Source: Actinomycetota bacterium (GTDB lineage Bacteria > Actinomycetota > UBA4738). Taken from it: a stretch of DNA of 64,000 nt. This document shows positions 1,988 through 23,604 of this stretch, one piece after another; position 1 is the first letter of the stretch; every line of letters starts with the position of its first letter. The position numbers were made by a program, and so were the translations under genes. The notes beneath the pieces are model-generated. The model saw only the letters and a list, made by a program, of their open reading frames with translations. It was not told the DNA's origin and made no database searches. The stretch covers positions 10,570 through 74,569 of the forward strand of contig JBEDUK010000013.1 in NCBI GenBank assembly GCA_040414485.1, given 5' to 3'.

Positions 1988-2542
1988 GCGTCCACCTCCC
2001 GTGTTCCCATGGGCCCGGCGCGAGAACGGACCCGGTTCCGCCGGCATCTGCCGGAGCGCCCCGGACCGTAGGTGTGGAGGGTGGCGCGCTCCGGGCGGCG
2101 AGGTGTCCGCGACGCGGAGCCCCGGCGAACCTGGCGTGCCGGTCGGGCATCGGGCCGGTGGCCGCGACGCGACCGCAGGGCGACCGACGAATGACGGTCG
2201 GCCGAACGCCGCGCGGGCCGTCGGCGGCCGCCGCAGGCGCTGACATACGCTTGCTGACACGCGCCGGCCGAACGGGATTCGTCGTGCGGGCCCCGAACCG
2301 TCGACGCGGCGACGCCGAACGGTCCGCAGTTGCTCGTTGTCCTGGCAGTCGCGCGTCACCGATCCGACAGCGCTCCGCCACCGTGGCTTGCGAGGGTTGC
2401 GCCCTGTGATCCGTCCTCACCGTGGCCGGCGGGCCCTTCTCCGGCGGCGCCGGTGCGCGCGTTCGCGCGTGCCCGGCCCGCGCTTCGCCGGCTCCGTGAC
2501 GGCGGGTACGGGCTGCGGCAGCGCCTCGCCGGGCATAGGGTT

Positions 2543-2583
2543 GTTCACCGACGGGCAAATGTCCATTCACCCAACAGTCACAG
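2543..2583. promoter_or_regulatory. putative PHO box: GTTCACC (2543), ATTCACC (2565), GTCACAG (2577) direct repeats at 11/22-bp phasing, ~90-120 nt upstream of pstC
   Basis: direct-repeat units read from sequence; matches PhoP-type PHO box architecture of Streptomyces/Corynebacterium. Confidence 0.45.
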
Positions 2584-2662
2584 ACCGCCGACATGCTCCG
2601 GTGGTCTTGACGTCAGGTCGCGGCCGGAACGGTCGCGGCCGGAGCGCTCGCAGCGGGGGAAG

Positions 2663-3682
2663 ATGAGCACGATCTCTGCCGACGTGGCGCAGCCACCGGA
2701 CGGCGACAGCACGCCGGATGCGCCGCGAACCATTACCCATACCCGGACGGGGGTCGATCGAGCGTTCCGGCGGCTGGCCACCGGGGCCGGCCTCGCGACG
2801 TTCGTCATCCTCTTCCTGATCGGGCTGTTCCTGCTGATCAAGTCGTGGCCGGCGTTCCACACCATGGGCCTGAAGTTCTTCACGACCTCACGATGGGACC
2901 CGGAGGGATCGCACGTCTTCGGCATCGCGGCGATCCTGTACTGGACGTTCGTCATCGCCATCGTCGCGCTGGCGATCGCGGTGCCGCTGTCGATCGCGAC
3001 GGCGCTGTTCATCACCGAGTACGCGCCGCGCCGGCTCCGCCGATGGATGATCTCGCTGGTCGACCTGTTGGCGGCGATCCCGAGCATCATCTACGGCATC
3101 TGGGGCCTGGCCTTCCTGGAGCCGCGGCTGGTTGGCGTCTCGCGATTCATCTCGAAGAACTTCGGGTTCATCCCGATCTTCAAGGTCCCCGGATCGAACC
3201 TGAACCCCGGGGCCTTCGCGGCGTCGGCATTCGTGGCCGGTGTGATCGTCTCGCTGATGGTCCTGCCGATCTGCGCGTCGATCGTGCGCGAGGTGTTCTC
3301 ACAGACCCCGCCGGGTGAGAAGGAAGCCGCCTTCGCGCTCGGCGGCAGCCGGTGGGGCATGATTCGGAGCGTCGTGCTGCCGTTCGGCCGCGGCGGCATC
3401 ATCGGGGGCGCGATGCTCGGGCTCGGCCGGGCGCTCGGCGAGACGATCGCCGTGGCGCTGGTGATCTCCCCGATCTTCACGATCTCGATCCACGTCCTGG
3501 CGACGGGCGCGAACGGCGTGGCGCCTCTCATCGCATTGCGGTTCGGCGAGGCGACCCAGAAGTTCGGCATCCCGGCGCTGATGGCTGCCGGACTGACGTT
3601 GTTCGTCGTGACCCTCCTCGTGAACTTCGCGGCCTCCGCGATCGTGGCCCGCTCGCGGTCCGGCAAGGGGGTCGAGATCTAG
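2663..3682 (+). CDS. pstC: phosphate ABC transporter permease PstC
   Basis: MSTISADV...FITEYAPRRLRRWMISLVDLLAAIPSIIYGIWGL; ATG 2663 with GGGGGAAG SD; ORF 2330..3682 trimmed. Confidence 0.9.
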   Translation: MSTISADVAQPPDGDSTPDAPRTITHTRTGVDRAFRRLATGAGLATFVILFLIGLFLLIKSWPAFHTMGLKFFTTSRWDPEGSHVFGIAAILYWTFVIAIVALAIAVPLSIATALFITEYAPRRLRRWMISLVDLLAAIPSIIYGIWGLAFLEPRLVGVSRFISKNFGFIPIFKVPGSNLNPGAFAASAFVAGVIVSLMVLPICASIVREVFSQTPPGEKEAAFALGGSRWGMIRSVVLPFGRGGIIGGAMLGLGRALGETIAVALVISPIFTISIHVLATGANGVAPLIALRFGEATQKFGIPALMAAGLTLFVVTLLVNFAASAIVARSRSGKGVEI

Positions 3683-4870
3683 ATGGCGGTCACCGCGCCC
3701 CCCAGGTCGCCGGGCTCTGCCGAGGCGCCGCCTCCGGGCGCGGGGGTCTTCGGCGGTCCGGGCGGCGACACGCCGATCCGGCCGCGTTCGTTCAACGCGG
3801 TCGACGCCTGGGTCCTCGTCGCGTCGATCGGCTCGTCGTTCGCGTTGATATGGGTGATCTTCCGGCTGATGCCGATCTCCGGCGCTGTCGGGTTCCTGTT
3901 CTGGTGGTTCGTGTCGTTCGCGTTCATCTACTGGCTGGCGATGCTGCAACTCGAGGGGCCGCTGGTGGCCAAGGACCGCCTGATGGCCGTCCTGATCGTC
4001 ACGGGCACGGGCATCCTGATCGTGCCGCTGGTCTCGATCATCGTGTTCGTTACGGCGAAGGGCATCGCGTACATCCGGCCGCACGTGTTCGTTCAGACGA
4101 ACAACCTCTGCGGCCAGCTGGACGGCCCCACGTGCGGAGGCATCGCGCATGCCATCGTCGGCACGCTCGAACAGGTCGCCATCGCCATGGTCATCTCGGT
4201 GCCGCTGGCGGTGCTCTGCGCGGTCTATCTGAACGAGATCGGCGGACCACTGCGACGGCCGGTGAGGCTCTTCGTCGACGCGATGAGCGGCGTGCCTTCG
4301 ATCGTGGCCGGCCTGTTCATCTACGCCGTGGTGGTCGTGAGCCTGGGCTGGGGGTTCTCGGGCTTCGCGGCCGCGCTCGCCCTGTCGATCCTGATGCTCC
4401 CGACGGTGACGCGGACCTCGGAGGAGGTGCTGCGCCTGGTGCCGGACGGCCTGCGCGAAGGCTCGCTCGCCCTCGGCGGCTACGAATGGCGCACGGTGTG
4501 GAATGTGGTGCTTCCCACCGCTCGCAGCGGCCTGATCACCGCGGTGATCCTGGGCGTCGCGCGTGCGGTCGGTGAGACGGCGCCGGTCCTGCTCACCGCG
4601 TTCGGCGCCCAGGTCATGAACGGCAACCCGTTCCACGGCCCGCAGGAGTCGCTGCCCCTGTTCATCTGGACCTATGTCCGGTTCAATCCCGGCGAAGCGC
4701 CGTACCTGCGCGCGTGGATGGCCTCCTTCGTACTGATCGTCCTGGTGCTCGGCCTGTTCACGCTCGCGCGCGTCCTGGGGACGCGCACGTCGATCGAACG
4801 CAGGCAGAAGCGAGCCGCGAAGCGCGACGCCAAACGCGCCGCGGCCGAACCCGGAGGAGCGAGAGCGTGA
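3683..4870 (+). CDS. pstA: phosphate ABC transporter permease PstA
   Basis: ATG directly after pstC TAG; EAA-loop permease signature ([25 protein letters not shown]...). Confidence 0.9.
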
Positions 4871-5688
4871 CGACGACCGAACAGGACCTGAGCGCCGGCA
4901 TGAACGGCGGCCCTTCCGGCAGCGGCGGCATGCGCGCCGAACGGGTTTCGGCGTGGTTCGGCACGCACAAGGTGCTCGAGCAGGTGACCCTGGACATGCC
5001 GGCCGGGAAGGTGACGGCGCTGATCGGGCCTTCGGGGTGCGGCAAGTCCACCTTCATCAGGATCCTCAATCGCATGCACGAGCTGGTCCCCGGTGCGCAG
5101 CTCTCGGGCCAGGTGTTCCTCGACGGGACCGACATCTACTCCCCAGAGGTCCGCCCCATCGAGACGCGGCGGAAGGTGGGCATGGTCTTCCAGAAGCCCA
5201 ACCCGTTTCCGGCGATGAGCGTCTACGACAACGTCCTGTCGGGCCTGAAGCTCTCCGGGATGAAGCCGGCGAACCCTGATGCCCTGGTGGAGGACTCCCT
5301 CACCCGGGCCGGCCTGTGGCGGGAGGTCCGCAACCGCCTGGAGGATCCGGGCGGAGGCCTCTCCGGAGGCCAGCAGCAGCGCCTGTGCATCGCCAGGTCC
5401 CTCGCCGTGTCGCCGGAGGTCCTGCTCATGGACGAGCCCTGCTCGGCGCTGGACCCCTCCTCCACGAGGCGCATCGAGGAGACCATCGGCGAGATCGTCC
5501 ACGAGGTGACCGTGGTGATCGTGACCCACAACATGCAGCAGGCCCAGCGCATCTCCGACCTCTGCGCGTTCTTCAACGTTGACGAAGGCTCGCCGGGTGG
5601 GATCGTGGAGATCGGTCCCACCACGAAGATCTTCAACGACCCCGACGATCCCCGGACCGCGGACTACGTCCACGGCAGGTTCGGATAG
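4867..5688 (+). CDS. pstB: phosphate ABC transporter ATP-binding protein PstB
   Basis: GTG 4867 overlaps pstA stop (GTGA); Walker [24 protein letters not shown]-terminal ADYVHGRFG. Confidence 0.9.
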
Positions 5689-5698
5689 GAAGGTCTCC

Positions 5699-7348
5699 AT
5701 GCTTCGAGGGAGAACGAACCGAACGACGCGAACCTCGCCAGTGCGCCACATCCTCCGCGCCGCCGCGGCGATGTGGTTCGCAGCGACATCGGCGCTCCTC
5801 ATGCTCCTGCTGATCCCGGCGTTGCCGGCATCCGCGTCGGGCCCGCCGGTGACCGGTGCCGGTTCGACCTGGGTCCAGATCGCGCTGGACCAGTGGCGCG
5901 CCGACTACGCGCACTTCGGCTACCAGATCAACTACTCGGGCGTGGGCTCGAGCGCGGGCCGGAACTTCTACATCATCAATCAGGTCGATTTCGCCGCGAC
6001 CGAGATCCCGTTCCAGCCCGACGAGGTCGCCCAGCTCCAAGCGGAGCACAAGACCTACCAGTACCTGCCCGACGTCGCCGGCGGAACCTCGCTGATGTAC
6101 AACCTGCACGACACCGCGGGCCGGCGCATCAGGAGCCTGAACATCGATTCGAACGCGGCCGCCCTGATCTTCACCGGCAAGATCAGCAGCTGGCAGGATC
6201 CGGCGATCACGCGTCTGAACCCGGGGCTCCACATCAGGGACACCCACATCACGCCGGTGATCCGGTCCGACGGCTCCGGCACCTCGGCGCAGTTCTCGCT
6301 GTACCTGCAGAACCAGCAGCAGAGCCTGTGGAACCAGTTCGTCCAGCAGTGGGGGTGCCAGGCACCCTGTTCGGTGTGGCCGAGCTTCAACGGCTCGGTC
6401 GGCGCCAATGGGAGCGACGGCGTGGCGAACTTCATCGCCAACGACACGCTCGGCCAGGGCGCGATCGGCTACGTCGAAGCGGGGTACGCCTACGGGCGGA
6501 ACTTCCCCGTGGGCAATCTGCACAATCGGAGCGGGCACTACGTCCAGCCGTCGTCGAACAACGTCGCGACGGCCCTCACGCACGCGACGCTGAACCACGA
6601 CCTGACGCAGAACCTGGTGGGCGTCTACAACGCGCCCGAGGCGAACTCGTATCCCATGTCCTCGTACTCGTACATGATCACGCCGACCGCCGAAGGGTTC
6701 GGATTCACGGCCGAGAAGGGCGCGGTCCTTTCGGGCTGGATCGTCTACATCGCGTGCAAGGGCCAGCAGAGCGCTGCCCCCCTCGGGTATTCGCCGCTGC
6801 CGAAGAACCTGATCCAGGCGGACTTCGACGCCGTGAACCGCATACCAGGGCATGTGAAGCCGCCGCCGATCGACTATCAGCACTGTCCGAATCCGAATCT
6901 GCCCCAGGGAAACGGCGGCAACAACGGGGGGAACAACGGGGGGAACAACGGCGGCAACGACGGGAACACTGGCAGCACCGGTGGCAGCACCGCCAGTACG
7001 GATCCCAGCTCGACGACGCCCGGCGCGACCGATCCCAGCCCGACGGCGGCACAGACCACGCCGCCGCCCGCGATCGGAGGGGTGGGCGGCAACCAGCCGC
7101 CATCCGGCGTCCAGGTCACCACGATGACCCAGGAGCAACAGCAGGCGGCGTACGCGGCTGCCCTGAAGAGCGCCTCCTACGCGCAGCCCGAGCCCATCCT
7201 TCCGCTGGTCGTGACCGCGCTCGGCGTGCTCGTGCTCGTATTCGCGCCGGTGTTGCTGCAGGTCAGGCGGCAGGCGCCGGCGCCGCGGTCGGCAACCGAC
7301 CGGCTGCGCCGGGATGAAGGGCGAGAGACGACGGACCATGGCGGATAA
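5699..7348 (+). CDS. PstS-like phosphate-binding protein with long low-complexity C-terminal extension (NGGNNGG repeats, S/T/P-rich) and C-terminal TM anchor
   Basis: ATG 5699 after GGAAGG SD; signal peptide ...ALPASA; IFTGKISSWQDPAITRLNPGLHIRDTHITPVIRSDGSGTS matches E. coli PstS core; hydrophobic LPLVVTALGVLVLVFAPVLL + RRQ tail. Confidence 0.8.
   Translation: MLRGRTNRTTRTSPVRHILRAAAAMWFAATSALLMLLLIPALPASASGPPVTGAGSTWVQIALDQWRADYAHFGYQINYSGVGSSAGRNFYIINQVDFAATEIPFQPDEVAQLQAEHKTYQYLPDVAGGTSLMYNLHDTAGRRIRSLNIDSNAAALIFTGKISSWQDPAITRLNPGLHIRDTHITPVIRSDGSGTSAQFSLYLQNQQQSLWNQFVQQWGCQAPCSVWPSFNGSVGANGSDGVANFIANDTLGQGAIGYVEAGYAYGRNFPVGNLHNRSGHYVQPSSNNVATALTHATLNHDLTQNLVGVYNAPEANSYPMSSYSYMITPTAEGFGFTAEKGAVLSGWIVYIACKGQQSAAPLGYSPLPKNLIQADFDAVNRIPGHVKPPPIDYQHCPNPNLPQGNGGNNGGNNGGNNGGNDGNTGSTGGSTASTDPSSTTPGATDPSPTAAQTTPPPAIGGVGGNQPPSGVQVTTMTQEQQQAAYAAALKSASYAQPEPILPLVVTALGVLVLVFAPVLLQVRRQAPAPRSATDRLRRDEGRETTDHGG
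6895..6965 (+). repeat. in-frame tandem nucleotide repeat encoding (NGGN)n inside PstS-like 1
   Basis: aacaacggggggaacaacggggggaacaacggcggcaac. Confidence 0.6.
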
Positions 7349-9473
7349 GCGGCGTGCTCCGGCAAAGCATCGCGCGCGCCGCCCGGCCCCGCGGCGCGGC
7401 CCCGCGCGGGTCGCCGCGTCGCTCCTGATCCCCATCGCCATCGGGATCCTCGGCGTCGTCGCCTCTCCGCTCGAGCTCGCGGCGCATGCCGACGGCCCGC
7501 AGATCAAGCTCGATCCGTCGAAAGACGTGACGTACGGGCAGTACATCCATGTGAGCCTGTCCGGGTACGCGCCCGGCATCGGCGTCGCGTTCCGCCAGTG
7601 CGTGAACGGCACACAGACGCCGGATCTGGACACGCAGTGCTCGCCGATCTACCCGGTGAGCACGGTCACCGACTCGTCCGGCAACGGTGACATCTATCTG
7701 AACGTGCTGCCGGACCCCGAGAACGCCCAGACCGGCCAGGGCAACCTCGTGTACGCGTCGAGCGCCGACACGTCGAAGGCCTGCGGTGACGGCAACCCGT
7801 GTTTTCCATGCGACCAGAACACCCCCTGCCAGATGGCCGCGTTCACTGATCCGCACGATGTCGGCACCGGCGTGTTCGCGAAGATGGAGTACGGTCCCTC
7901 GCCCACCGCATGCCCGGCGCCCGGACAGGATCAGGCGTTCGCCCACGGCTCCGGTTCGGCCTCCGCGTACCGAGCCCTCTACACGTGGGAAGGCATCGTG
8001 TGCCAGAACCCGAAGGACCTCTCGGTCCAGGTGGATCTCACGAACTCCTACGACGGGGTGCAGGCTTGGACGAACGGCATATCCGACTTCGCCGTCACGG
8101 GGCAGCCGCTGGATGCGGACCAGAAGGCGGCGCTGCACGCCGCGGGGAGGACGTGGGCGTACGCGCCGATCAGCGGCTCGGGTGTGGTCCTCGCCTACGA
8201 CATCTTCGACAAGCGCGGTCCGCAGATCACGAACCTGATCCTCACGCCGGACCTGATCGCGCAGCAGTTCACCAGCCAGATCCCGAACTGGAACTTCGTC
8301 GACGCGATCAACAAGCTGAACCCGGGGATCCAGTGGCCCTCCCGAATCGTCTCCTACGTCCGGGCCGAGCACTCCGCGGAGACGATGGCGTTCACCACGT
8401 GGCTCACCAATGTGGCGAGTGGCTCGCTCGGGGGCCTCAACCCGCCGTGGCCGGGCGCCACGAACGTGTTCCCGCAGTACGGGTTCGACGTCGGGGTTCA
8501 GGGGGCGAACAAGCTCGCGCTGGCCATCCGGAACCCGAACACCGACTTCAGCACCTACGGGAACATCGGGTTCATCGACTCGAGCATGGCGGCCTTCTAC
8601 GGCTTGCCGACGGTGAAGATCGAGCTCGCCCCGGGGGTCGACGTGCCGGCGACACCCGACACGATCCTCAAGGCGATCAACGACGCGCTCCCGCCGGATT
8701 CCAGCGGCGCCGTGAACTTCGCCTATGACGACGCCGATCACGGCGCCTGGCCGATCCCGCTGATCTCCTACATCCCGGCACCGACGAACAAGATCGACCA
8801 GTCGGTGGGAGCCGTGCTCCGGTCGTTCATCACCTTCGCGGTGGGTGACGGACAGGATGCGCTCCCGGGGTTCCTGAACTACGCGAAGTTGCCGGCGGTG
8901 CTCTCGGCCGAGGCGGTGGCGGCCGCGAATCGGATCCCGCATGTGCCGCATACGACCCCGCCGCACCACACGACCACGCCGCCCACGCATTACACGACGC
9001 CGCCCACGTACTACACGACGCCGCCCACGTACTACACGACCACGACGCCGCCGACGTTCACGACGGGCCCACCGCCGACGTTCCCGACCGGCTCGCCAAC
9101 CGCGACGACCACGTTGCCCTGCCCGGGGGCCACCCCGAGCGCGACCGGTTCCCCGGCCGCATCCGGATCGGTCCTGCCGACGACGCAGTCGCCCACGCCG
9201 TCGGTGTCGGCATCGGGTTCGTTCGGGCCCTCCGAATCCCCCTCGCCCACCGAGAGCCCCTGCCCGAGCGGACCGCCCGCGGGTGCCGTCGCGAGCGGTG
9301 GTCCGCTCTATCCTTCGGCGGCTCGGTTCGTCCTGCCCTCGATCGCCCTCCTCGGACTGGTCGGCCTCACGGCGGGGCCCATCCTTCAGCGGATGAGCGC
9401 ACACCGTCGGACAGGGCCCGCCGCGGCCGCTGCGACCGCCGCGGTCACTCCGGAACCGCCCGCGCCGGCGTGA
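7338..9473 (+). CDS. secreted two-part protein: Cys-containing N-terminal domain + PstS/PBP-like domain + TTPPTYY repeat linker + C-terminal TM anchor
   Basis: signal peptide ending AHA; AHGSGSASAYRALYTW and DLIAQQFTSQIPNWNFVDAINKLNPGIQWPSRIVSYVRAEHSAETMAFTTWL resemble PstS; 21-nt tandem repeats 8950-9060; hydrophobic C-terminus + HRR tail; start 7338 (alt 7314). Confidence 0.6.
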   Translation: MADKRRAPAKHRARRPAPRRGPARVAASLLIPIAIGILGVVASPLELAAHADGPQIKLDPSKDVTYGQYIHVSLSGYAPGIGVAFRQCVNGTQTPDLDTQCSPIYPVSTVTDSSGNGDIYLNVLPDPENAQTGQGNLVYASSADTSKACGDGNPCFPCDQNTPCQMAAFTDPHDVGTGVFAKMEYGPSPTACPAPGQDQAFAHGSGSASAYRALYTWEGIVCQNPKDLSVQVDLTNSYDGVQAWTNGISDFAVTGQPLDADQKAALHAAGRTWAYAPISGSGVVLAYDIFDKRGPQITNLILTPDLIAQQFTSQIPNWNFVDAINKLNPGIQWPSRIVSYVRAEHSAETMAFTTWLTNVASGSLGGLNPPWPGATNVFPQYGFDVGVQGANKLALAIRNPNTDFSTYGNIGFIDSSMAAFYGLPTVKIELAPGVDVPATPDTILKAINDALPPDSSGAVNFAYDDADHGAWPIPLISYIPAPTNKIDQSVGAVLRSFITFAVGDGQDALPGFLNYAKLPAVLSAEAVAAANRIPHVPHTTPPHHTTTPPTHYTTPPTYYTTPPTYYTTTTPPTFTTGPPPTFPTGSPTATTTLPCPGATPSATGSPAASGSVLPTTQSPTPSVSASGSFGPSESPSPTESPCPSGPPAGAVASGGPLYPSAARFVLPSIALLGLVGLTAGPILQRMSAHRRTGPAAAAATAAVTPEPPAPA
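8950..9060 (+). repeat. in-frame 21-nt tandem repeat (TACACGACGCCGCCCACGTAC-like) encoding TTPPTYY units
   Basis: read directly from sequence. Confidence 0.6.
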
Positions 9474-11023
9474 GCGGATCGGTGATGCTCGAGGACCGTC
9501 CCGCCGGCGACGGCGAGGCGAAGGTCGCCCAGGCGCGAGAGGGGCTCGCCGCCCTCGATGCGCACCTTGCCACGATCGACGGGCGGCCCGTCGGCCCCGA
9601 CGAGCGCAACGAGATGATCGGCCTCGTCCTGTCGGTCGACGAGACCCTCCGTGAGCTCGAGATGTGGAGCGGCAATGGGTCGGGCGAGCCGACGGCGCCG
9701 CCGCGGCGGCGGGGTCTGCACTTCCGGCGGCACAAGGTCCGCACGGATACCGGCGGTCCCGTGAACGGCGAAGATTCGAACGCCACCGTGGTCCTCGACC
9801 GCGTCGAGCCGGGCACGAAGATCACGGCCGAGACCGCGCCTGCCGAGCTGATCCCGGTTCAGCCGATGCCCGTCGCACCGTCGCCGCCGCCGCCGACGGC
9901 GACGCCGCCGACGGCAGATCAGCCATCGCCGGTCGAACCGACGCGGGTCGAGGGACCCGGCGCCGCGCCGGATGAGCGCGTCTCGATCGACGAGGAGTAC
10001 CGGCAGGACCTTGCGGCCCGCGTCAGGGCGCTCCGCGCCGAACTCGACGAGCGCGCGGGCCGGGTGCTCGTCCTCACCACCGATGAGCGGCAACGCCCGC
10101 GCCGGCGGCTGGCCGGGTTGTTCGGCTCCATCGGTCAGCCGGCGACTGCAGAGACCGCCGCCACGACGGCGACCCTGCCCGCCGCGCTCAGGAGCCGCCG
10201 ATCCGTCGAGCGCTCCGTGGGAAAGGTCCTCACCGCCGCGGGAGTCATCGCCGTGCTGTTCCTGCTGTTCGAGTTCGGCCTGACCGGCTCCCTCGAGGCG
10301 CGGGACCAACGGGCGCTGCTGCTCCAGTTCCAGGACGCCATCGTCACGACGAACCTCGACCTGCCGAACAAGACCATCCCGTCGGGTACGGCGGTCGCGC
10401 TCATGAACATCCCGTCCATCCACGTGAGTCAGGTGGTCGTCGAGGGCACGACCAATCGCCTGCTGAAGGCGGGACCGGGCCACCTCGCCGCCGCCCCGCT
10501 GCCGGGCGAGTTCGGCAACGCGATCATCCTGGGGCACCGGACGAAGTACGGAGCGCCGTTCCGCAGCCTGAACCTGCTCCATACGGGCGACCTGATCAAC
10601 GTCACCACCGGGCAGGGGTTGTTCGTCTATTCGGTAAACCATGTTTACCACTTGAAGTCCGGCGACCCGGATGTGTTCGCCGGCTCGACCGATTCGCGCC
10701 TGACACTCGTCAGCGCTGACCCGCCCCAGGGGGCGAGCGGCCGCATCGTCGCCGTCGCACTCCTCCGAGGGAGCCCGGTCGCCGTCGACACGCGCCCGCC
10801 GGTGCCGGTGGGCCGGGACGAACTGGGGCTTTCGGCCGATCCGGTCGGCGCCGTGTTCGGCCTGATCTGGCTTCAGGTGTTCATCGTGGCGTACCTGATC
10901 ACCCGTCGTATCCGTCGGACGTGGAACCCCACCGTGACGTGGTTGCTCGCCGCGCCGATCCTGCTGGCCCTGCTGCTGCTCGTGTTCATCAACGTCGACC
11001 TGCTGCTGCCGGGCACGCTGTAA
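9470..11023 (+). CDS. class E sortase homolog with active-site Cys replaced by Ala (TLVSA instead of TLxTC); long Pro-rich N-terminal cytoplasmic extension and C-terminal TM helices
   Basis: VVEGTTNRLLKAGPGHLAAAPLPGEFGNAIILGHRTKYGAPFRSL...GDLINV...YSVNHV...SRLTLVSADP; GTG 9470 overlaps upstream stop (GTGA); catalytic His (GHRT) and Arg retained. Confidence 0.6.
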   Translation: MSGSVMLEDRPAGDGEAKVAQAREGLAALDAHLATIDGRPVGPDERNEMIGLVLSVDETLRELEMWSGNGSGEPTAPPRRRGLHFRRHKVRTDTGGPVNGEDSNATVVLDRVEPGTKITAETAPAELIPVQPMPVAPSPPPPTATPPTADQPSPVEPTRVEGPGAAPDERVSIDEEYRQDLAARVRALRAELDERAGRVLVLTTDERQRPRRRLAGLFGSIGQPATAETAATTATLPAALRSRRSVERSVGKVLTAAGVIAVLFLLFEFGLTGSLEARDQRALLLQFQDAIVTTNLDLPNKTIPSGTAVALMNIPSIHVSQVVVEGTTNRLLKAGPGHLAAAPLPGEFGNAIILGHRTKYGAPFRSLNLLHTGDLINVTTGQGLFVYSVNHVYHLKSGDPDVFAGSTDSRLTLVSADPPQGASGRIVAVALLRGSPVAVDTRPPVPVGRDELGLSADPVGAVFGLIWLQVFIVAYLITRRIRRTWNPTVTWLLAAPILLALLLLVFINVDLLLPGTL

Positions 11024-11035
11024 GGGTCACGCTCG

Positions 11036-11485
11036 ATGCCGAGCCGCGGACGATCGGTCGCTCCGGCTGCCTTGCTCGCCATCGCCGTGCTGGCGGCGGC
11101 GTGCACCTCGGGCGCGAGCGCGAACACACCGACCTCGCCGCCGGTACGGCCGACGCCGTCCCGGTCGGCAGGCTCGCCCGACCCGAACCGGGAGCGTGAC
11201 CATCCCGATCCGAACTTCGACTTTGGCTTCACGATCCGCATCACCGACCAGGGCTTCCACCCGCAGTGGCTGGTGTCGTTGTGCTGCAAGCCGGTGACGT
11301 GGATCAACGACACGAACGCGCCGGTGAAGGTGGTCTTCGACCATCAATCGGTCCGATCCGGCCAGATCGCGCCCGGGGGCACGTTCGTGTGGAAGCCGAA
11401 GAACGTCCAGAGCGTGACCTACCACGACGCGGCCGATCCGAGCCGCCACGGGATCATCCAGGTCAATCAGTCGTTCGAGTCCTGA
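11036..11485 (+). CDS. putative lipoprotein, unknown function
   Basis: lipobox LAAAC after n/h-region; high GC3; 149 aa. Confidence 0.5.
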   Translation: MPSRGRSVAPAALLAIAVLAAACTSGASANTPTSPPVRPTPSRSAGSPDPNRERDHPDPNFDFGFTIRITDQGFHPQWLVSLCCKPVTWINDTNAPVKVVFDHQSVRSGQIAPGGTFVWKPKNVQSVTYHDAADPSRHGIIQVNQSFES

Positions 11486-11496
11486 GTCCACGGGCG

Positions 11497-11537
11497 CCTT
11501 GCTCCGGGCGGGATGGGGCGTTTACTTCGGAGCAAGG
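11497..11537. terminator. possible stem-loop (10-bp stem CCTTGCTCCG / CGGAGCAAGG, 21-nt loop) after lipoprotein gene
   Basis: inverted repeat read from sequence; no U-tract. Confidence 0.25.
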
Positions 11538-11613
11538 GCTCGGGAGCGAACCGGGAGGAGAGAGCCATGCTCAATGAAGAGCGGCGGATCGTCCATGAGG
11601 CAACCCGGTACTG

Positions 11614-12156
11614 GTGGGTCCTGCTGGTGAGCGGCGGCGCCTGGCTCGTGATCGCCTGGTGCTGCGCTTGAACACCACATCGCTCGTCACCGTCGGCGTT
11701 CTGCTCGGCTTCGTGTTCCTCCTGGCCGGGATCAACGAGGTGGGCGTGGCGGCCATGGTTTCAGGGGGCTGGAAGGTCTGGCACTGGATCCTCGCGGTGA
11801 TCTTCTTCCTGGGCGCGCTCTGGGGCTTCATCCGCCCGGTCAACACCTTCTTCGCGCTGGCGTCGGTGCTCGGCTTGATCCTGATCCTCTACGGCACGTT
11901 CGAGATCATCGAGGGGATCGCGTCGCGGGCGGCGAACCCGTACTGGTGGCTCAACCTCACCCTGGGCATCCTGCTGGTGCTCCTTGCGTTCTGGGTGTCC
12001 GGCTCGGACCGCGTCTACGCCCTGGCCCGGCGCAGTTATCTGATCCTGTTCTGGATCGGCTTCATGGCCATCTTCCGCGGCGTCTCGCAGATCGCGCTGG
12101 CGTTCAGCCTCAACCACGCCCGGAAGTTGGCGGATTCGGGGACCGTGGCGGCCTGA
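11614..12156 (+). CDS. DUF308 / HdeD-like multi-TM membrane protein; first repeat (MLNEERRIVHEATRYWWVLLVSGGAWLVIAW) encoded in a different frame 11567..11671, apparent frameshift
   Basis: frame B has 5 TM helices with internal YWW(L)xL repeat; frame A short ORF with SD GGGAGGAGAGAGCC-ATG carries homologous first repeat and ends in TGA at ~11669. Confidence 0.55.
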   Translation: MGPAGERRRLARDRLVLRLNTTSLVTVGVLLGFVFLLAGINEVGVAAMVSGGWKVWHWILAVIFFLGALWGFIRPVNTFFALASVLGLILILYGTFEIIEGIASRAANPYWWLNLTLGILLVLLAFWVSGSDRVYALARRSYLILFWIGFMAIFRGVSQIALAFSLNHARKLADSGTVAA

Positions 12157-12248
12157 CCGCCCGCGAAGCCAGAACCCCACACCTACGACCCGAGAACCCC
12201 TGCCGGACCGATCCCGGCCTCCCGACGCGTGCCCGCCGGTTGCCATCC

Positions 12249-12299
12249 GTTCACGCAATCGCCCCCGCCCGTTCGTCGTCCATCCTTCGTCCGTTCGGA
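12249..12299. promoter_or_regulatory. degenerate PHO-box-like repeats: CCGTTCACG (12247), CCGTTCGTC (12269), CCGTTCGGA (12291) at exact 22-bp phasing
   Basis: read from sequence upstream of PstS-like 3. Confidence 0.3.
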
Positions 12300-12474
12300 G
12301 ACGAGCCACAGCGACGCAACCTCCCGCGGAGAGACTCCTGCCCGCTGATCGCACTTGAACGACGTGCCGAAAGGGGGGAGGGCGTTCGAGGACGTGAATG
12401 CACGGTGGTTCTCGCACGGCAGGATGGATCTGGCCGCTGAAGCGCCGGGTCATTTCGATTCCGAAAGGCAGGCG

Positions 12475-13668
12475 ATGATCAAGAAGACGAAGAGTCGCCG
12501 GCTGGGGCTCATCGGTGCGGTGATCGTGGGCAGCAGCGCCCTGTTCATCTCCGCGGCGATGCCGGCAGGGGCGACGGGAGGTGGCGGACCGGTCGCGGCG
12601 AGCGTGCTCGGCAGCGGCTCGGACACCACGCAGTTCATGATGAACGCGATCGATAACCTGTACCTGTTCAGCCCCGGGTGTTCACCCATCCCGACGCAGG
12701 GACAGAACGCGTGGCTGGACTTCAGCTGCGAGTCCCCTGACCCGCCGAACACGATCCTCTCTGAGAACTACAAGCACGACCAGGTGCACGAGGCCTACTT
12801 CCTGGGGTCGAGCAACGGGATCAAGCAGCTGTGCTCGCAGGGACAGTCGGGCGTGGCCCGCATCGACTTCGCCCGTTCGTCGCGCGGTCCCGGGAGCAGC
12901 GACTGCACCGGGCTGAAGTTCGTTGCCTACGCGCGTGACGGCATCTCCTGGGAGGCCTTCAACATCAAGGGCTCCGGTATCAAGAACATGAACAACCAGA
13001 ACGGAACCTGCGCGGGGTCCGGCGGGGACACGCAGTTCTGTCTGACCCAGAGTCAGCTGAACGGCATCTTCGTGGCCTGCACGATCACGAACTGGAGCCA
13101 GGTCGGCGGCAACAACCTCAAGTTCGCCATCTACACGCCCCAGGCCGGGTCCGGGACACGCTCCACCTGGGACGGGTTCGTCGGCGGCGACTCATCGCAT
13201 TGCATCCCGGCCGGCCAGCAGAGCACCCACATCGTCCCGGAGAACGACAACACGGCCATCTTCAACAACGGCGACCAGAAGAAGGCCATCTTCCCGTTCT
13301 CTTTCGGTGTGTGGACGCAGCGCGTCCACGGGCAGCACAAGGCGATCCTCGGCGCCATCGACAACGTCCCGGTGAACAAGGACACGATCGCCGATGGGTC
13401 GTTCCCGTTCGGCCGCTTCCTCTACAACGTCTACTGCACCGCGTCGTGCTCGAGCGGTGCCTCGGAGGACGAGGCCGTCACCTACGTGGGTGAGGAAGGC
13501 TGGATCTGCAAGCTGGACGCGGACCACGCCAACGACCCGGCCACCGGCGCGAACTACCGGACCGAGATCGCGAACGCCATCTCGGCGAGCGGGTTCGTCC
13601 CCGTGCCGAAGGGTGTCATCGGCGGCGGTGACACGAACCAGGACTACTGCAGGTTGTTCAACCACTAG
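12475..13668 (+). CDS. secreted Cys-rich PstS/PBP-superfamily-like protein (third PstS-like paralog)
   Basis: signal peptide MIKKTKSRRLGLIGAVIVGSSALFISAAMPAGA; GSSNGIKQL...IDFARSSRG and AGSGTRSTWDGFVGG resemble PstS GSGAGIRQF/VDFGASDAP/DGSGTSF motifs. Confidence 0.55.
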   Translation: MIKKTKSRRLGLIGAVIVGSSALFISAAMPAGATGGGGPVAASVLGSGSDTTQFMMNAIDNLYLFSPGCSPIPTQGQNAWLDFSCESPDPPNTILSENYKHDQVHEAYFLGSSNGIKQLCSQGQSGVARIDFARSSRGPGSSDCTGLKFVAYARDGISWEAFNIKGSGIKNMNNQNGTCAGSGGDTQFCLTQSQLNGIFVACTITNWSQVGGNNLKFAIYTPQAGSGTRSTWDGFVGGDSSHCIPAGQQSTHIVPENDNTAIFNNGDQKKAIFPFSFGVWTQRVHGQHKAILGAIDNVPVNKDTIADGSFPFGRFLYNVYCTASCSSGASEDEAVTYVGEEGWICKLDADHANDPATGANYRTEIANAISASGFVPVPKGVIGGGDTNQDYCRLFNH

Positions 13669-13695
13669 GCGCCCAAAGCGAACCGCAACACCGAA

Positions 13696-13730
13696 GGCCC
13701 GGACCGCCTGACGCGGTCCGGGCCTTCGAC
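13696..13730. terminator. perfect GC-rich hairpin (AAGGCCCGGACCGC-CTGAC-GCGGTCCGGGCCTT) 28 nt after stop of 12475..13668
   Basis: inverted repeat read from sequence; no U-tract (common in high-GC genomes). Confidence 0.5.
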
Positions 13731-13804
13731 CGTTCGACCCGCGGAACACGTTCGTCCAGGCGGGACGGGTTCAACAGGGAGCCACGCTCGGCCGGAGAAA
13801 GGGG

Positions 13805-13836
13805 CAGGCCCGGCGCCGGGGAAGCGCCGGGCCTAT
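13805..13836. terminator. second perfect hairpin (AGGCCCGGCGC-CGGGGAA-GCGCCGGGCCT)
   Basis: inverted repeat read from sequence. Confidence 0.35.
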
Positions 13837-14082
13837 CGGGGAGCCGGACGATCGCCGGGGTGGCGAGGGGCGAGGAACATCCGGCCGACAGGAATCATGC
13901 AGAGCCCGGATGACCACGTGCGGTCCCGCACGCGACCGGGAAATGAACGGTCATCACGGCAAACGGTCCACGGAGGCGGGCGTTCTTCCTGCTCGTGCGC
14001 CGCGCGTGGCCGCGCACGATTCACCGGACGGTCGACCTGCGTTCATCGCTCGGCCATCCGGCCGCTGCACCGTGCCGCGTGC

Positions 14083-14850
14083 ATGGAAGGGCAGGTGCAA
14101 CCCGTCGGGATCGGAGCCTCTCGGGCCGCCGGGCCCCGCGTCGTGGATCGCCTCGAGGCGAACCTGACCCGCCGCGCACCCGGCAGCGACGTACCCGATG
14201 CGGCGGTGCTGGCGGAGGAGCTCGAGACGACGCCCGGCGCCGTTCGCCGGGCCTTGACCGAACTGGAGCGGCGCTTCGTCGTTCGCCGGAACCAGACCCG
14301 GCACCTGGTGGTCTCCTCGCGGATCGACTACCGCATCGGCTCCGGGATGCTTCCCGGACTGACCGAGGCGGTCGCCGCATCGGGCGTCACCGTCCGCTCG
14401 GAGACCGAGCGGGTCCGCCTCCAGCGCGTACCGCCCCGCGTCCGGCTCGAGCTCGACATCGGACGGATGTCGCGTGTCCACGTCCTCTCCCGGCGCCGTT
14501 TCGTCGACGACGAACCGGTGGCGTGCTCCGTCTCCTACGTGGTCGCGGACCTGACGCCCGGCCTGCCGGACCGACTCGGCACCGAGGGATCGCTGCACGC
14601 CACGCTCCGCGAGGCGTTCGGGCTTCATCCCGTGCCCGCGTGGGTTCGGGCCGAGATGGACGTGCCGCCGGTGGACATCCCTCGCCGGCTGAAACTGGGA
14701 GGCCGGCCTGTGCTGGTGTCGATCAGGTCACGAACGGACTGCGCCAGACTGGGCCGCCCGCTCGAGGTGACCGCCTCCTGGCTGCGCCCCGACGTCTTCC
14801 GCGTGGTCCTGGAGGTGAACGGTGCGACGGGTGTGGGAGGCGCCGCGTGA
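14083..14850 (+). CDS. GntR-family transcriptional regulator with UTRA effector domain (HutC/PhnF subfamily)
   Basis: ATG 14083; HTH ...AAVLAEELETTPGAVRRALTELERRFVVRR; C-terminal UTRA-like domain. Confidence 0.75.
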   Translation: MEGQVQPVGIGASRAAGPRVVDRLEANLTRRAPGSDVPDAAVLAEELETTPGAVRRALTELERRFVVRRNQTRHLVVSSRIDYRIGSGMLPGLTEAVAASGVTVRSETERVRLQRVPPRVRLELDIGRMSRVHVLSRRRFVDDEPVACSVSYVVADLTPGLPDRLGTEGSLHATLREAFGLHPVPAWVRAEMDVPPVDIPRRLKLGGRPVLVSIRSRTDCARLGRPLEVTASWLRPDVFRVVLEVNGATGVGGAA

Positions 14851-14862
14851 GCGTCGGGCAGG

Positions 14863-15327
14863 TCAGGGCGCGGGCCAGTAGCGCGCGCACGTGAATCGTC
14901 CGCCGTCGGCCTCGAGTTCCCACACCGAACCCTTCGCGAACCCGACGTCTCCCTCGACCCGCATCCCGCGCAGCACCAGATGCGGGATGAGCGCTTCGAT
15001 CACGTCGCCGTGACTGCACGCCGCCGTCGGCTGGTCGGCCAGCCGAACGAGGAGCGCCTCCACGCGCTCCACCGGTGTCCCCTCCGCGAGGTCCGGTTCG
15101 TCGCTGACATCCTGGCGTCGCGCGGCGGCGAGGGGCTCGAGTGTCTGCACACACCGAACGAACGGGCTCGAGGCGAGCCTGCCGATGATGAGGCTGTCGA
15201 AGCTCTCCGCGAGGGACTTCGCCTGCCGACGGCCCTTCGCCGAGAGCGGGCGAAGGTCGTCCGCGCCGCTCCACGACTTCCGGTTCCCGGCGTCGGCGTG
15301 ACGGATGAGGTACAGCGTCACCGTCAC
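14863..15327 (-). CDS. histidine phosphatase family protein (SixA-like phosphohistidine phosphatase)
   Basis: LYLIRHADAG (RHG-type catalytic motif); ATG overlaps upstream NUDIX stop (ATGA). Confidence 0.7.
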   Translation of the reverse strand: MTVTLYLIRHADAGNRKSWSGADDLRPLSAKGRRQAKSLAESFDSLIIGRLASSPFVRCVQTLEPLAAARRQDVSDEPDLAEGTPVERVEALLVRLADQPTAACSHGDVIEALIPHLVLRGMRVEGDVGFAKGSVWELEADGGRFTCARYWPAP

Positions 15328-15788
15328 CTGCGGTCGTCCGGCTCGTCCGGCTCGGACGGCTCGAACGGCTCGAACGTCGCAACGAGCTCGCGATCATGCG
15401 GGTAGGTCAGCCGGGCGAGCGCCTGCTGCACGGGGAGCCAGGCGATCGCGTCCACCTCGTCGCCGGGTTCGAACGACCCCTCCCCCGATCCCGGTCCGGC
15501 GCGCATCTCGAAGTAATTGACGGCCTTCGGCGTGCCGGACGCGTCACGGTAGGAGATCGTTCCGAGCGGCCGCACGATCTGGCAGCGCACTCCGGTCTCC
15601 TCCCACACCTCGCGCAGCGCCGCGGTGACCTCGTCCTCCCCGGGCACGAGCTTGCCCTTGGGCAGGCTCCAGTCGTCGTACCTGGGGCGGTGCACGAGCA
15701 AGATCTCGACCGCGCCGTCGTCCCCGCGCCGCCTGACGATCCCGCCCGCGGCCCGAACGGTCCCTGCCCCGGTTCCAGTTCCGATCAC
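15324..15788 (-). CDS. NUDIX hydrolase
   Basis: Nudix box GKLVPGEDEVTAALREVWEETGV; GTG 15788 overlaps CHAD gene stop (GTGA). Confidence 0.8.
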   Translation of the reverse strand: MIGTGTGAGTVRAAGGIVRRRGDDGAVEILLVHRPRYDDWSLPKGKLVPGEDEVTAALREVWEETGVRCQIVRPLGTISYRDASGTPKAVNYFEMRAGPGSGEGSFEPGDEVDAIAWLPVQQALARLTYPHDRELVATFEPFEPSEPDEPDDRR

Positions 15789-17428
15789 GTCCACGCCTTC
15801 GGCCGCTTCGCCTTGACGCGCTTCCACGCCTCGCGCCACGTGTCGCGGGTCTGCGCCGCCGACCACCGCTCCAGACCGGCCAGTTCGCCCGCGACGAATG
15901 CCGTTCGGGCCGAACGCGCCCGTGCCGCCGCCTCCCGGAGCCAGCGGGCGGCGACGACGGCGTCGTTGTGCCGGCCCAGCACATCCTGGAGCCCTGCCGC
16001 CGCCTCGCCGAGATCCCGCGCCGGCTTGCCCAGCAGGGGCGAGACGGCCTCGGTCGCGTACCGAAGGCGCTTCGCCCTGATGCGGACAGCGTGAAGCCCT
16101 TCGTCGGACGGAGGATCGTCAAGCTGCTTGACGGCCTTGCGCAGCCGGCGCCATGGCTTGCGGAGCAGATCGGGGAGCGTGGCGCCCGCGGGCAGGTCGG
16201 CCTCGAGCAGCAGCGCCGGCTCGTTGCCCGCGTTCACCAGCCGGTCGAGGACCTGCGCGTACCGCGGTTCGCGCATGGCCTCCAGGAGATCGGCCCGCGC
16301 GATGCGGCGCTCTTCGGACATGCGATCGAGCAGCCGTGCCCCTGCCTCGCGGTCCGGCCCCTCGAGCGCCTCGACCCGGTCGGTGAGGAGCTCCATCAAC
16401 ACGTCCGCGTCGCGCGCGGCGCCGAGCTTGTCGGCGAGCCAGTGGAGGTCGTCGACCAGATGAGCGGCCCACGTCGGATCGAGGAGCGGCGCGAAGGTCC
16501 TGAGGTCCGAACGCAGCCGCCGGGTGGCGACCCGGGCCTGGTGGACGCCCTCCGGATGGGCGTCAAGGCGGACGACGGCGTCGTGCTTGAGCAGCCTGAT
16601 CACCGACGCGGCGATGGCGTTCCGGACGACCGCGCCCGCCGTCGCGCCCGCATGCAGTTCGGCCACGGCCAGCTCGGCCGGGCCCGTCGCCCGCGGACCC
16701 ACCGCCCGGATGTACTTGGTGGTCGAATCGGGTTCGCCCGCGCCGGCGTCGCGCAGGAGCGAGACGATCCGCGCGAGGAGCTCGTCCGTCGCTCCTTCGC
16801 CCGCCTCCACCTCGAGCTCGCGGAAGCGCGCGGCGAGCCGGCGGCCGTCCATGACCGACACCTCGTCGTCGACGATCTCGGCCACGCGGCTGCCCGGCGC
16901 CTCGTCGGACGCCACCGCCGGCCCGACCGCGTCCGCGTCGCCCTCGCCGTCCATCACGGCGTCCGGGACCCGCACGACCACCGAACGCCGCAGTGTCCGC
17001 AGGCGGGTGACGGGCACGACGTCGGCCGTTCGCACGTACGCGCGCAGCAGGTCGATCGCTCCCGCGGGAGGTTCCTTCGGGCCGCCGTCGAACGTGACCT
17101 CTTCGCGGATCAGCGCGTCGCCCTCCGTTTCGGGCGGAAGCTTGACCGTCCAGCCTTCGGTGTCGCGATACCGGAGGCTGCATCCCCATCGCGCAAGCCG
17201 AAGGTCCGGTGTGTCGAAGTAGGTCGTCCGCTGCGTCCTCGGCTGGGCGACCTCCACCTGGAGCCCGTCCAGCGCCTTTGCGAGGTCCGGCAAGCGGAAG
17301 GACGGCGCCGCGGCGAGCTTGATCTCGCGCTCGGGGGCGTGGCGTACGGGCTCGTGCCGCGCGGTGGCGGCGGAGGCCAGCTCCAAGCCGCCCCGCCCGC
17401 CTGGTTCCTGAGGCGCGGTGTCAGCCAC
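15785..17428 (-). CDS. CYTH (triphosphate tunnel) + CHAD domain protein
   Basis: N-terminal EREIKL...CYTH fold region, C-terminal CHAD helices (RVATRRLRSDLR, RIRAKRLRYATE); start uncertain (17428 GTG or 17473). Confidence 0.7.
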   Translation of the reverse strand: MADTAPQEPGGRGGLELASAATARHEPVRHAPEREIKLAAAPSFRLPDLAKALDGLQVEVAQPRTQRTTYFDTPDLRLARWGCSLRYRDTEGWTVKLPPETEGDALIREEVTFDGGPKEPPAGAIDLLRAYVRTADVVPVTRLRTLRRSVVVRVPDAVMDGEGDADAVGPAVASDEAPGSRVAEIVDDEVSVMDGRRLAARFRELEVEAGEGATDELLARIVSLLRDAGAGEPDSTTKYIRAVGPRATGPAELAVAELHAGATAGAVVRNAIAASVIRLLKHDAVVRLDAHPEGVHQARVATRRLRSDLRTFAPLLDPTWAAHLVDDLHWLADKLGAARDADVLMELLTDRVEALEGPDREAGARLLDRMSEERRIARADLLEAMREPRYAQVLDRLVNAGNEPALLLEADLPAGATLPDLLRKPWRRLRKAVKQLDDPPSDEGLHAVRIRAKRLRYATEAVSPLLGKPARDLGEAAAGLQDVLGRHNDAVVAARWLREAAARARSARTAFVAGELAGLERWSAAQTRDTWREAWKRVKAKRPKAWT

Positions 17429-19678: not shown

Positions 19679-19718
19679 GTTCACCGGACGTTCACCGTGT
19701 CGTGCCGGTCGATTCACT
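19679..19718. promoter_or_regulatory. PHO box: GTTCACC (19679), GTTCACC (19690), degenerate unit (19701), ATTCACT (19712) direct repeats at exact 11-bp phasing in ppk1/pstS divergent promoter
   Basis: read from sequence ~50-90 nt upstream of pstS ATG 19767. Confidence 0.55.
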
Positions 19719-20849: not shown

Positions 20850-20856
20850 CCCGGGC

Positions 20857-23602: not shown

Positions 23603-23604
23603 CC

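Follow-up and report, generated by a model that had tools for sequence, protein, structure and literature searches.

In a 64,000-nucleotide (nt) stretch of an Actinomycetota bacterium (GTDB lineage UBA4738; contig JBEDUK010000013.1; hereafter the window), three divergent proteins of the PstS type, PBP1, PBP2, and PBP3, lie downstream of the pstC, pstA, and pstB genes of a phosphate transporter (Pst). We found that all three are parts of a conserved eight-gene cassette, ordered pstC-pstA-pstB-PBP1-PBP2-SrtL-lipoprotein-PBP3, which also encodes a sortase-like membrane protein, SrtL, that lacks the sortase cysteine. The original prediction had singled out the three binding proteins as specialized for another phosphorus species or for surface display; it omitted the three genes between PBP2 and PBP3 (SrtL, a lipoprotein of 149 amino acids (aa), and a DUF308 protein) and missed this main point. 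Taken as a whole, we lean slightly toward an interpretation in which the cassette encodes a Pho-regulated phosphate importer whose receptors are tethered or secreted and which includes a sortase-like protein as a non-catalytic scaffold. In this interpretation, transport and regulation are likely, and the scaffold role, its least certain element, is tentative. The features of the cassette region were as follows (TM, transmembrane).

2543–2586, forward strand: direct repeats resembling PHO boxes (GTTCACCgacg / ggcaaatgtcc / ATTCACCcaac / AGTCACAgacc), 5′ of pstC within the divergent promoter region
About 2663–3682, forward strand: pstC-like permease, matching the NCBIfam equivalog TIGR02138 with 270.6 bits (cut-off 196)
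3683–4870, forward strand: pstA-like permease, matching the equivalog TIGR00974 with 260.5 bits (cut-off 193) and extended by about 95 aa at its N-terminus
About 4870–5688 (start approximate), forward strand: pstB-like ATPase, matching TIGR00972 with 330.3 bits (cut-off 343.2)
5699–7348, forward strand: PBP1, a PstS-type receptor (PF12849) with an NGGN and S/T/P-rich linker, C-terminal TM helix, and basic tail
7314–9473, forward strand: PBP2, with a signal peptide, neocarzinostatin-like domain, PstS-like domain, TPPTYY and P/T/S linker, LPSIA, TM helix, and basic RRR tail
9470–11023, forward strand: SrtL, a sortase-domain membrane protein with a sortase fold, no catalytic Cys, and an LPGTL-COOH end
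11036–11485, forward strand: small lipoprotein of 149 aa with lipobox AAAC, a Cys-Cys pair, and a cupredoxin-like domain
11500–11530, forward strand: terminator-like hairpin with a T-run (consensus match only)
11614–12156, forward strand: DUF308/HdeD-like membrane protein with six TM helices, between the small lipoprotein and PBP3
12249–12296, forward strand: weak PHO-box-like site 5′ of PBP3, made up of three GTTC repeats phased at 22 nt
12475–13668, forward strand: PBP3, a secreted, 12-Cys PstS-family protein of the S-type (SphX-like)

The window has about 70% GC, and real frames were marked by third-position GC content, which was 0.85–0.91 in all called frames; given these values and the occurrence of homologues elsewhere, we regarded the genes between PBP2 and PBP3 as real. 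As had been proposed, no pstS precedes pstC, since the preceding gene (2–2359) lies on the minus strand, and two PstS-like genes, PBP1 and PBP2, instead follow pstB. The pstC-like permease was 62–81% identical across cassette loci, and the cassette pstB was 60% identical to a canonical pstB located elsewhere in the window.

The same or nearly the same gene order was present in 11 independent loci (L001, L003, L004, L006, L008, L009, L010, L011, L014, L015, and L016), which were identified by context look-ups of PBP2 and SrtL relatives and by a scan of one genome per GTDB species. L006 was cut at PBP2 and the contig of L008 ended before PBP3. Deviations were limited to displacement of PBP3 by a few kb in some loci and of SrtL in one. 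In most loci, PBP2 was 35–41% and PBP1 52–72% identical to the window proteins, with higher values in L014, the nearest relative. The named hosts comprised metagenome-assembled genomes of Dormibacterota and of “uncultured Actinomycetes”, that is, two phyla, and every SrtL or PBP2 relative with examined context sat in a cassette. Three further loci showed partial arrangements. L019, a distant variant, combined pstCAB with genes for a long PstS, a sortase-like protein, a large protein rich in Cys, and a small protein. No sortase was present in L018, which had pstAB and a long PstS, or in L017, where a long PstS follows a pstA-like gene. The literature searched contained no account of this cassette.

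Genes for glycosyltransferases of families GT2 and GT4, sulfotransferases, or mannosyltransferases flanked the cassette in several loci (L001 2287–5270 and 19899–21854; L004 232–5277; L016 16573–17730). The encoded transferases might modify the Pro/Thr-rich linkers described below, or the adjacency might be coincidental.

SrtL matched the Pfam Sortase family (PF04203) with 82.7 bits against a cut-off of 26.6, and its AlphaFold2 (AF2) model had a predicted local distance difference test (pLDDT) score of 90.9. Foldseek searches with this model recovered 4D70 (TM-score (target) 0.83) and the class E sortase SrtE (5GO6, 0.79), and the class E sortase model NF033747 was matched with 88.5 bits, below its cut-off of 160. 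Three TM helices were predicted, with the sortase domain and the C-terminus outside the membrane. The window protein reads TLVSA where sortases have TLxTC, placing Ala at the Cys position. Across 121 family members, this position was occupied by Ser (105), Ala (14), Thr (1), or His (1), and by Cys in none; the catalytic His position was Arg in 87 and His in 34, including the window protein, and the active-site Arg was kept in 115. Because the nucleophile is never present and the His is often Arg, we treated SrtL as a sortase-fold pseudoenzyme.

The C-terminus of SrtL itself resembles a sorting motif: in 61 of 120 members it is exactly LPGTL, and about 85% of members end in some form of LPxT[L/M]. 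This tail lies about 10 residues past the last TM helix, where the sortase groove would face, and it was modeled with a pLDDT of 83–90 even though it is coil. SrtL probably binds LP-type juxtamembrane segments, of which its own tail would be one. None of the three binding proteins contains an LPXTG or LAXTG motif; PBP1 and PBP2 do have the helix and basic tail. The SrtL and PBP3 families each had more than 420 clusters in metagenomes, and SrtL relatives are labeled “sortase A” or “class E sortase” in databases, labels that are misleading given the failed class E cut-off and the absence of the defining Cys. Separately, residues 1–245 of SrtL (9470–10200) form a predicted cytoplasmic extension that is Pro/Ala/Arg-rich and without a Pfam domain; it is similarly long in L014 and shorter in L001, and most relatives are only 270–330 aa in total.

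PBP1 matched PF12849 (E = 1.6e-32), its best PDB sequence matches were all PstS, and it scored 203.4 bits on the PstS model TIGR00975 (cut-off 205), on which the canonical paralogue in the window scored 338. The nine D-type PstS phosphate contacts that we checked were, in E. coli numbering, T10, F11 (a backbone contact), S38, D56, R135, D137, S139, G140, and T141. PBP1 retained eight of them, with T10, S38, R135, D137, S139, G140, and T141 unchanged and F11 replaced by Trp at the backbone contact, so that its sole side-chain change was Asp56 to Glu. This Glu was invariant in four aligned cassette copies and was the majority state (91 of 150) among the nearest 50%-identity representatives of PBP1. 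By sequence, PBP1 would be a PstS in all but threshold.

The proposed architecture of PBP1, with an (NGGN)n and S/T/P-rich linker followed by a membrane anchor, was borne out. A cleavable-looking N-terminal signal and the binding domain are followed by an S/T/P/G-rich linker, in which the NGGN stretch is a 12-nt repeat (4.5 copies at 6911–6964), a TM helix at residues 500–518, and RR. In both PBP1 and PBP2 the linker is about 100–125 aa long, is rich in P/T/S/G, and leads into a single TM helix at the C-terminus followed by basic residues, and hence the surface display that had been suggested holds for these two proteins in the sense of membrane tethering. This arrangement extends beyond the cassette: the nearest 50%-identity representatives of PBP1 were mostly 500–700 aa, and 77 of 124 long PstS-like representatives had a C-terminal TM helix. 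Given these lengths and anchors, a C-anchored long PstS after pstB represents a broad clade and is no oddity of the window. In the window, and in all cassette loci whose sequence was not cut off before PBP1, the PBP1 gene came directly after pstB. Additionally, in many of the long PstS relatives the last part of the C-terminal helix showed a pattern with Pro (for example VFAPVLL, MFGPLL, or LVPPVV) followed by RRRR, which may be an unrecognized anchoring or sorting signal.

PBP2 differed in both its N-terminal domain and its pocket. The Cys-containing N-terminal domain noted previously was confirmed, with a length of about 150–200 aa and eight Cys in the window protein; across PBP2 as a whole, six Cys were invariant in a seven-sequence alignment. 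In the window this domain had weak neocarzinostatin-like matches (PF00960, 19.6 bits against a cut-off of 25; NF040680, 33.2 against 86), and most of the listed PBP2 relatives carried a precomputed PF00960 match. The repeats and anchor were likewise as described, the TPPTYYT stretch corresponding to a 21-nt repeat (3.1 copies at 8976–9040) and the TM helix to residues 669–687, followed by RRT. The anchor helix starts with LPSIA, and a [LVF]P[SAG][IVL] pattern was present at this position, semi-conserved, in most of 29 relatives.

As a D-type PstS, PBP2 failed on score (TIGR00975, 82.1 bits against a cut-off of 205) and on residues. Among 28 relatives, D56 was replaced by Gly in 26 and T141 by Glu or Gln in 27, R135 was kept in all 28, G140 had become Ala, Glu, Ser, or Thr, and T10 had become Ala or Ser, leaving only S38, R135, and S139 mostly kept. 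Since these changes are themselves conserved, the alternative pocket appears functional but different rather than decayed; one possible reading is that the carboxylate has moved from loop 3 to loop 4. As judged from these alignments, PBP2 alone of the three proteins has a truly remodeled pocket. Only 7 of the 185,579 genomes scanned, one for each GTDB species, had a PBP2 match, and the first family search gave 30 clusters, probably a word-index artifact in view of the numbers obtained for SrtL and PBP3. No dedicated NCBIfam model was found for PBP2, SrtL, or the small lipoprotein. In L017 (2965–6039) and L019 (9722–12133) the PBP2 position was occupied by proteins of 800–1000 aa without a Pfam match, the latter with a Cys-rich N-terminus and ending in a TM helix and RRRGRR, which may be further diverged PBP2 analogues.

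PBP3 was, as expected, secreted and Cys-rich, with a signal peptide and 12 Cys, each of which was kept in at least 39 of 44 relatives. It matched PF12849 with 44 bits and the S-type family model TIGR02136 with 58.8 bits, mainly in domain II and short of the cut-off of 206.6. Its AF2 model had a pLDDT of 89.7, and the best PDB matches of the model were all phosphate-binding proteins (4GD5, 4Q8R, 9L8J, and 1TWY; TM-score (target) about 0.77). Using the phosphate contacts of Clostridium perfringens PBP-1 (4Q8R; PMC5381212), we found that S49, S112, S136, and S226-G227-T228 of PBP3 corresponded to these contacts; in 44 sequences, S49, G227, and T228 were invariant, position 136 was Ser or Thr in all, and S226 and S112 were each kept in 38. 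The Asp-Arg-Thr triad, assigned by motif as D155, R314, and T228, was invariant. The Arg site (P222) was Pro in 30 sequences, Ala in nine, and another residue in the remainder, with Arg in none, and Asp50, at the Ser16/Thr12 position of loop 1, was Asp in 41. SphX of Synechocystis, which has Ser63 and Pro142, binds inorganic phosphate (Pi) in experiments, through an Asp-Arg-Thr triad (PMC13614923). Because the Ser/Pro pocket and the triad match those of SphX, PBP3 is best read as a predicted SphX-like S-type Pi binder with Cys-rich insertions, its residues agreeing with that family with the exception of Asp50. We also considered the Arg to Pro and Thr to Asp changes as a loss of phosphate binding, and rejected this since SphX, with the same Pro, binds Pi.

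Conservation of the phosphate-coordinating residues, which had been put forward as a check on the three proteins, was thus seen in PBP1 apart from the Asp56 to Glu change and in PBP3 in the form of the S-type pocket, but not in PBP2. PF12849 was the only Pfam family matched by any of the three. Membership in the DING, PhnD, or PtxB families was rejected, with only PF12849 matched in Pfam and no PDB sequence match so labeled.

The small lipoprotein between SrtL and the DUF308 gene had an invariant Cys-Cys pair, and a profile of four sequences gave weak matches to a nitrite reductase cupredoxin domain (E = 4.5e-4) and to plastocyanins (E = 0.002–0.2); the aligned type 1 copper ligand positions (His-Cys-His-Met) were not conserved. 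The hairpin at 11500–11530 is the probable end of an operon running from pstC to the lipoprotein gene. The DUF308 gene that follows looks like a window-specific insertion, as neither L014 nor the other cassette loci examined had it at the corresponding place.

A canonical lipoprotein pstS-pstCAB-phoU operon, which had been reported about 10 kb away, was present (19767–24327) and begins only 6 kb past PBP3; a response regulator gene (24278–25036) follows it. Two genes of the operon were located as follows.

19767–20849: canonical lipoprotein pstS (338 bits, TIGR00975)
23605–24327: phoU of the canonical operon (167 bits)

More broadly, the cassette sits in a phosphate-metabolism island (2–2359 on the minus strand; 13897–19547) that includes ppk, CYTH-CHAD, histidine phosphatase, and GntR/UTRA regulator genes, followed by the canonical operon and a response regulator. 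The gene at 2–2359 encodes a weakly Phosphodiest-like protein of more than 786 aa and is divergent from pstC, with which it shares the PHO-box region. An Rfam scan of the whole window gave no match.

The Streptomyces PHO box consists of 11-nt direct repeat units of the GTTCACC type, with at least two in a promoter (PMC4415409, PMC2691820). By sequence, this arrangement was found upstream of both pstC (GTTCACC-N15-ATTCACC-N4-AGTCACA at 2543–2582) and the canonical pstS (two GTTCACC and one ATTCAC at 19679–19717). The pattern GTTCAC-N16-WTTCAC had two matches in 64 kb, at these two genes (2543 and 19690), against 0.17 expected, and the pstC arrangement was kept upstream of pstC in L014. The PHO-like repeats proposed for PBP3 were also recovered, in a weak form, as the phased GTTC repeats at 12249–12296 (one match against none in 100 shuffles, with the pattern picked post hoc), and the corresponding site in L014 was nearer the consensus (ATTCACC...GTTCACC...GTTCCGG). 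Because the terminator-like hairpin lies after the lipoprotein gene, PBP3 is probably its own Pho-controlled unit. Across the window, GTTCACC occurred 29 times against 6.9 expected, with most copies intragenic; this excess probably stems from codon usage or reading frame and not from regulatory sites, with only the phased copies at 2543 and 19679–19717 being PHO-like. A sigma-70 promoter scan of 2300–14000 found none, a result that is uninformative in an actinobacterium of 70% GC.

Regulatory genes accompany the cassette in other genomes. A PhoR/PnpS-like kinase, short at 347–361 aa, was encoded just upstream in L003 and L016. An OmpR-type regulator gene followed the cassette, at a short distance in L001, L003, and L016 and at a greater one in L004. 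The L001 regulator was 67% identical to the window regulator that follows pstSCAB-phoU.

In the mechanism we propose, Pi limitation would lead PhoP to switch on a second, high-affinity Pst importer. PBP1 would act as its main phosphate receptor, a D-type PstS with Glu in place of the proton-accepting Asp, kept on the membrane beside PstCA by its flexible linker and C-terminal helix. PBP3 would be a secreted, disulfide-rich SphX-type binder, expressed from its own PHO-like promoter and presumably of different affinity. PBP2, a tethered paralogue with an Ig-like domain of neocarzinostatin fold, could serve as an accessory receptor or adaptor, and it would combine with SrtL and the lipoprotein into an accessory module in the membrane, by which receptors are organized or retained at the transporter. 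Within this module, SrtL may act as a membrane scaffold that grips juxtamembrane LP-x motifs without cleavage, namely its own LPxT[L/M] and the LP[S/A/G][I/V] of PBP2. A more specific version, which we consider rather unlikely, is that the SrtL family are non-covalent “sorting-signal readers”, whose dead groove holds their own LPxT[L/M]-COOH or swaps it for the LP[S/A/G][I/V] of PBP2, thereby assembling a multi-receptor complex of E-type, G/E-type, and SphX-type PstS and the cupredoxin-like lipoprotein at the Pst permease. If true, this would be an undescribed way of organizing tethered binding proteins in monoderm bacteria.

Several points weigh against this mechanism. PstB and PBP1 fell 13 and 1.6 bits short, respectively, of their equivalog cut-offs, and we know of no characterized case of Glu replacing Asp56, a change that could alter affinity or selectivity. 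The response regulators had similar scores on the MtrA, YycF, and PhoB models, all below cut-off. Moreover, because the long PstS proteins of L017 and L018 are anchored without a sortase-like neighbor, SrtL is not required for the C-terminal anchor; the accessory module thus supplements a long-PstS system and travels with the PBP2-type protein, not with the anchor as such. The scaffold role is argued from the lost catalytic residues, the motif resemblance, and the confidently modeled tail, and because 87% of SrtL members have Ser where the Cys would be, there is a small chance of Ser-based chemistry.

The sortase fold of SrtL, its best matches to class D and E sortases, the sorting-signal layout of linker, hydrophobic helix, and basic tail in PBP1 and PBP2, and the semi-conserved LP[SAG] at the start of the PBP2 helix could all be accommodated by true sortase anchoring, in which an active SrtL would cleave the C-terminal signals of PBP1 and PBP2 and link these proteins to peptidoglycan as class E sortases do. 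The residue counts largely refute this already: the nucleophile is missing in 121 of 121 members, with the window protein among those that have Ala, and the His is Arg in 87. PBP1-type anchors also exist without a sortase neighbor, the binding proteins have no LPXTG or LAXTG, and the score on the class E hidden Markov model (88.5 bits against 160) fell below its cut-off, making covalent anchoring very improbable. Even less probable is that the window contains a second Pst system of ordinary kind, with PstS paralogues that are redundant and with the sortase-like and small genes as unrelated neighbors. Mycobacteria and cyanobacteria commonly have more than one PstS copy in a genome (PMC3095447, PMC10846223), but the order pstCAB-PBP1-PBP2-SrtL-small(-PBP3) recurs in 11 loci of two phyla at only 35–60% protein identity, and all SrtL and PBP2 relatives with examined context are in the cassette.

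The idea that the three proteins feed different phosphorus compounds (phosphite, phosphonates, organophosphates, or polyphosphate/pyrophosphate) to one transporter, which follows the original prediction, draws on three distinct pocket architectures, each of them conserved, and specifically on the PBP2 pocket without D56, G140, and T141 and with an added Glu and on the Asp of PBP3 loop 1 in place of the Thr12 equivalent (41 of 44). Against it, all three proteins match only PF12849 and PstS models in Pfam; phosphate-binding proteins lead the PDB sequence matches of all three as well as the structural matches of PBP3; PstC and PstA are phosphate permeases at equivalog level; and the PBP3 pocket is that of SphX, which binds Pi, while PBP1 holds all contacts but one. 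We therefore regard this idea as improbable, and for PBP1 and PBP3 a specialization for another phosphorus species was not upheld. To a similarly low degree we credit a sensing role, in which the accessory module of PBP2, SrtL, the lipoprotein, and PBP3 would sense external phosphate and report to a PhoR-like kinase as PstSCAB-PhoU does in E. coli. The kinases upstream in L003 and L016, their short length, the OmpR-type regulators downstream in L001, L003, L004, and L016, and the non-canonical PBP2 pocket are consistent with sensing, but no kinase adjoins the cassette in the window and PBP3 retains a complete transport-type Pi pocket. Sensing does not exclude the importer with tethered and secreted receptors that we favor, and the two are compatible.

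Phosphate scavenging is central in the poor soils that Dormibacterota and many uncultured actinomycetes inhabit, and the cassette may be their main Pst system. Its three pocket solutions, Glu for Asp, a possibly relocated carboxylate, and the SphX Ser/Pro pair, form a natural experiment on affinity and selectivity. The SrtL family comprises several hundred sortase-fold proteins without a nucleophile that are strongly conserved, have an LPxT-like tail, and are tied to transport rather than wall anchoring, and it represents a testable case of a sortase turned binding module.

Compared with E. coli PstSCAB (9K3S; PMC12976172), the cassette has PstC and PstA at equivalog level, a near match to PstB, a PBP1 with the PstS fold family and eight of nine contacts, and PHO-type repeats. 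It differs in its order (pstCAB-pstS, not pstSCAB); in a receptor anchored through a linker of roughly 100 aa and a C-terminal TM helix rather than by lipid, and not free in the periplasm; in the Asp56 to Glu change; and in having five extra conserved genes and no phoU. PBP3 resembles SphX and C. perfringens PBP-1 in having Ser where D-type proteins have Asp, in its SGT loop, and in its Asp-Arg-Thr triad; it shares the Pro at the Arg site with SphX, and its closest solved folds are S-type. As with SphX, the extra binding-protein gene lies beside a pst operon. Unlike these proteins, PBP3 is about 150 aa longer, has 12 conserved Cys in insertions, is about 18% identical to solved S-type binding proteins, has Asp for Ser/Thr in loop 1, and scores below the TIGR02136 cut-off.

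SrtL shares with class E and D sortases of Actinobacteria and Firmicutes (SrtE 5GO5/5CUW; C. perfringens SrtD 4D70) the eight-stranded barrel, the N-terminal membrane helix, the GPGH, G(H/R)R, and TLxT motifs, and the active-site Arg. In contrast to those enzymes, it never has the Cys, usually has Arg for His, bears two extra C-terminal TM helices ending in LPxT[L/M]-COOH, and is encoded in a pst operon with no LPXTG or LAXTG substrates nearby. Oligopeptide-class binding proteins of the archaeon Sulfolobus, which bind sugars or peptides, consist of a signal peptide, binding domain, S/T/P-rich linker, and C-terminal TM helix, and here the same layout is found on bacterial PstS proteins, as in the 77 of 124 long representatives. 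The weak match and conserved paired Cys of the PBP2 N-terminal domain recall the neocarzinostatin family (PF00960), from which PBP2 differs in the fusion to a PstS-like domain and membrane anchor and in having no enediyne biosynthesis context. Extra Pst receptors are known from cyanobacteria (sphX) and mycobacteria (PstS1–3), and the cassette would likewise work as a PstSCAB system with additional receptors. The literature searched contained neither the neocarzinostatin-fold PstS fusion, nor the cupredoxin-like lipoprotein, nor the conserved coupling of a Pst system to a sortase-fold protein that has an LPxT tail and no catalytic Cys.

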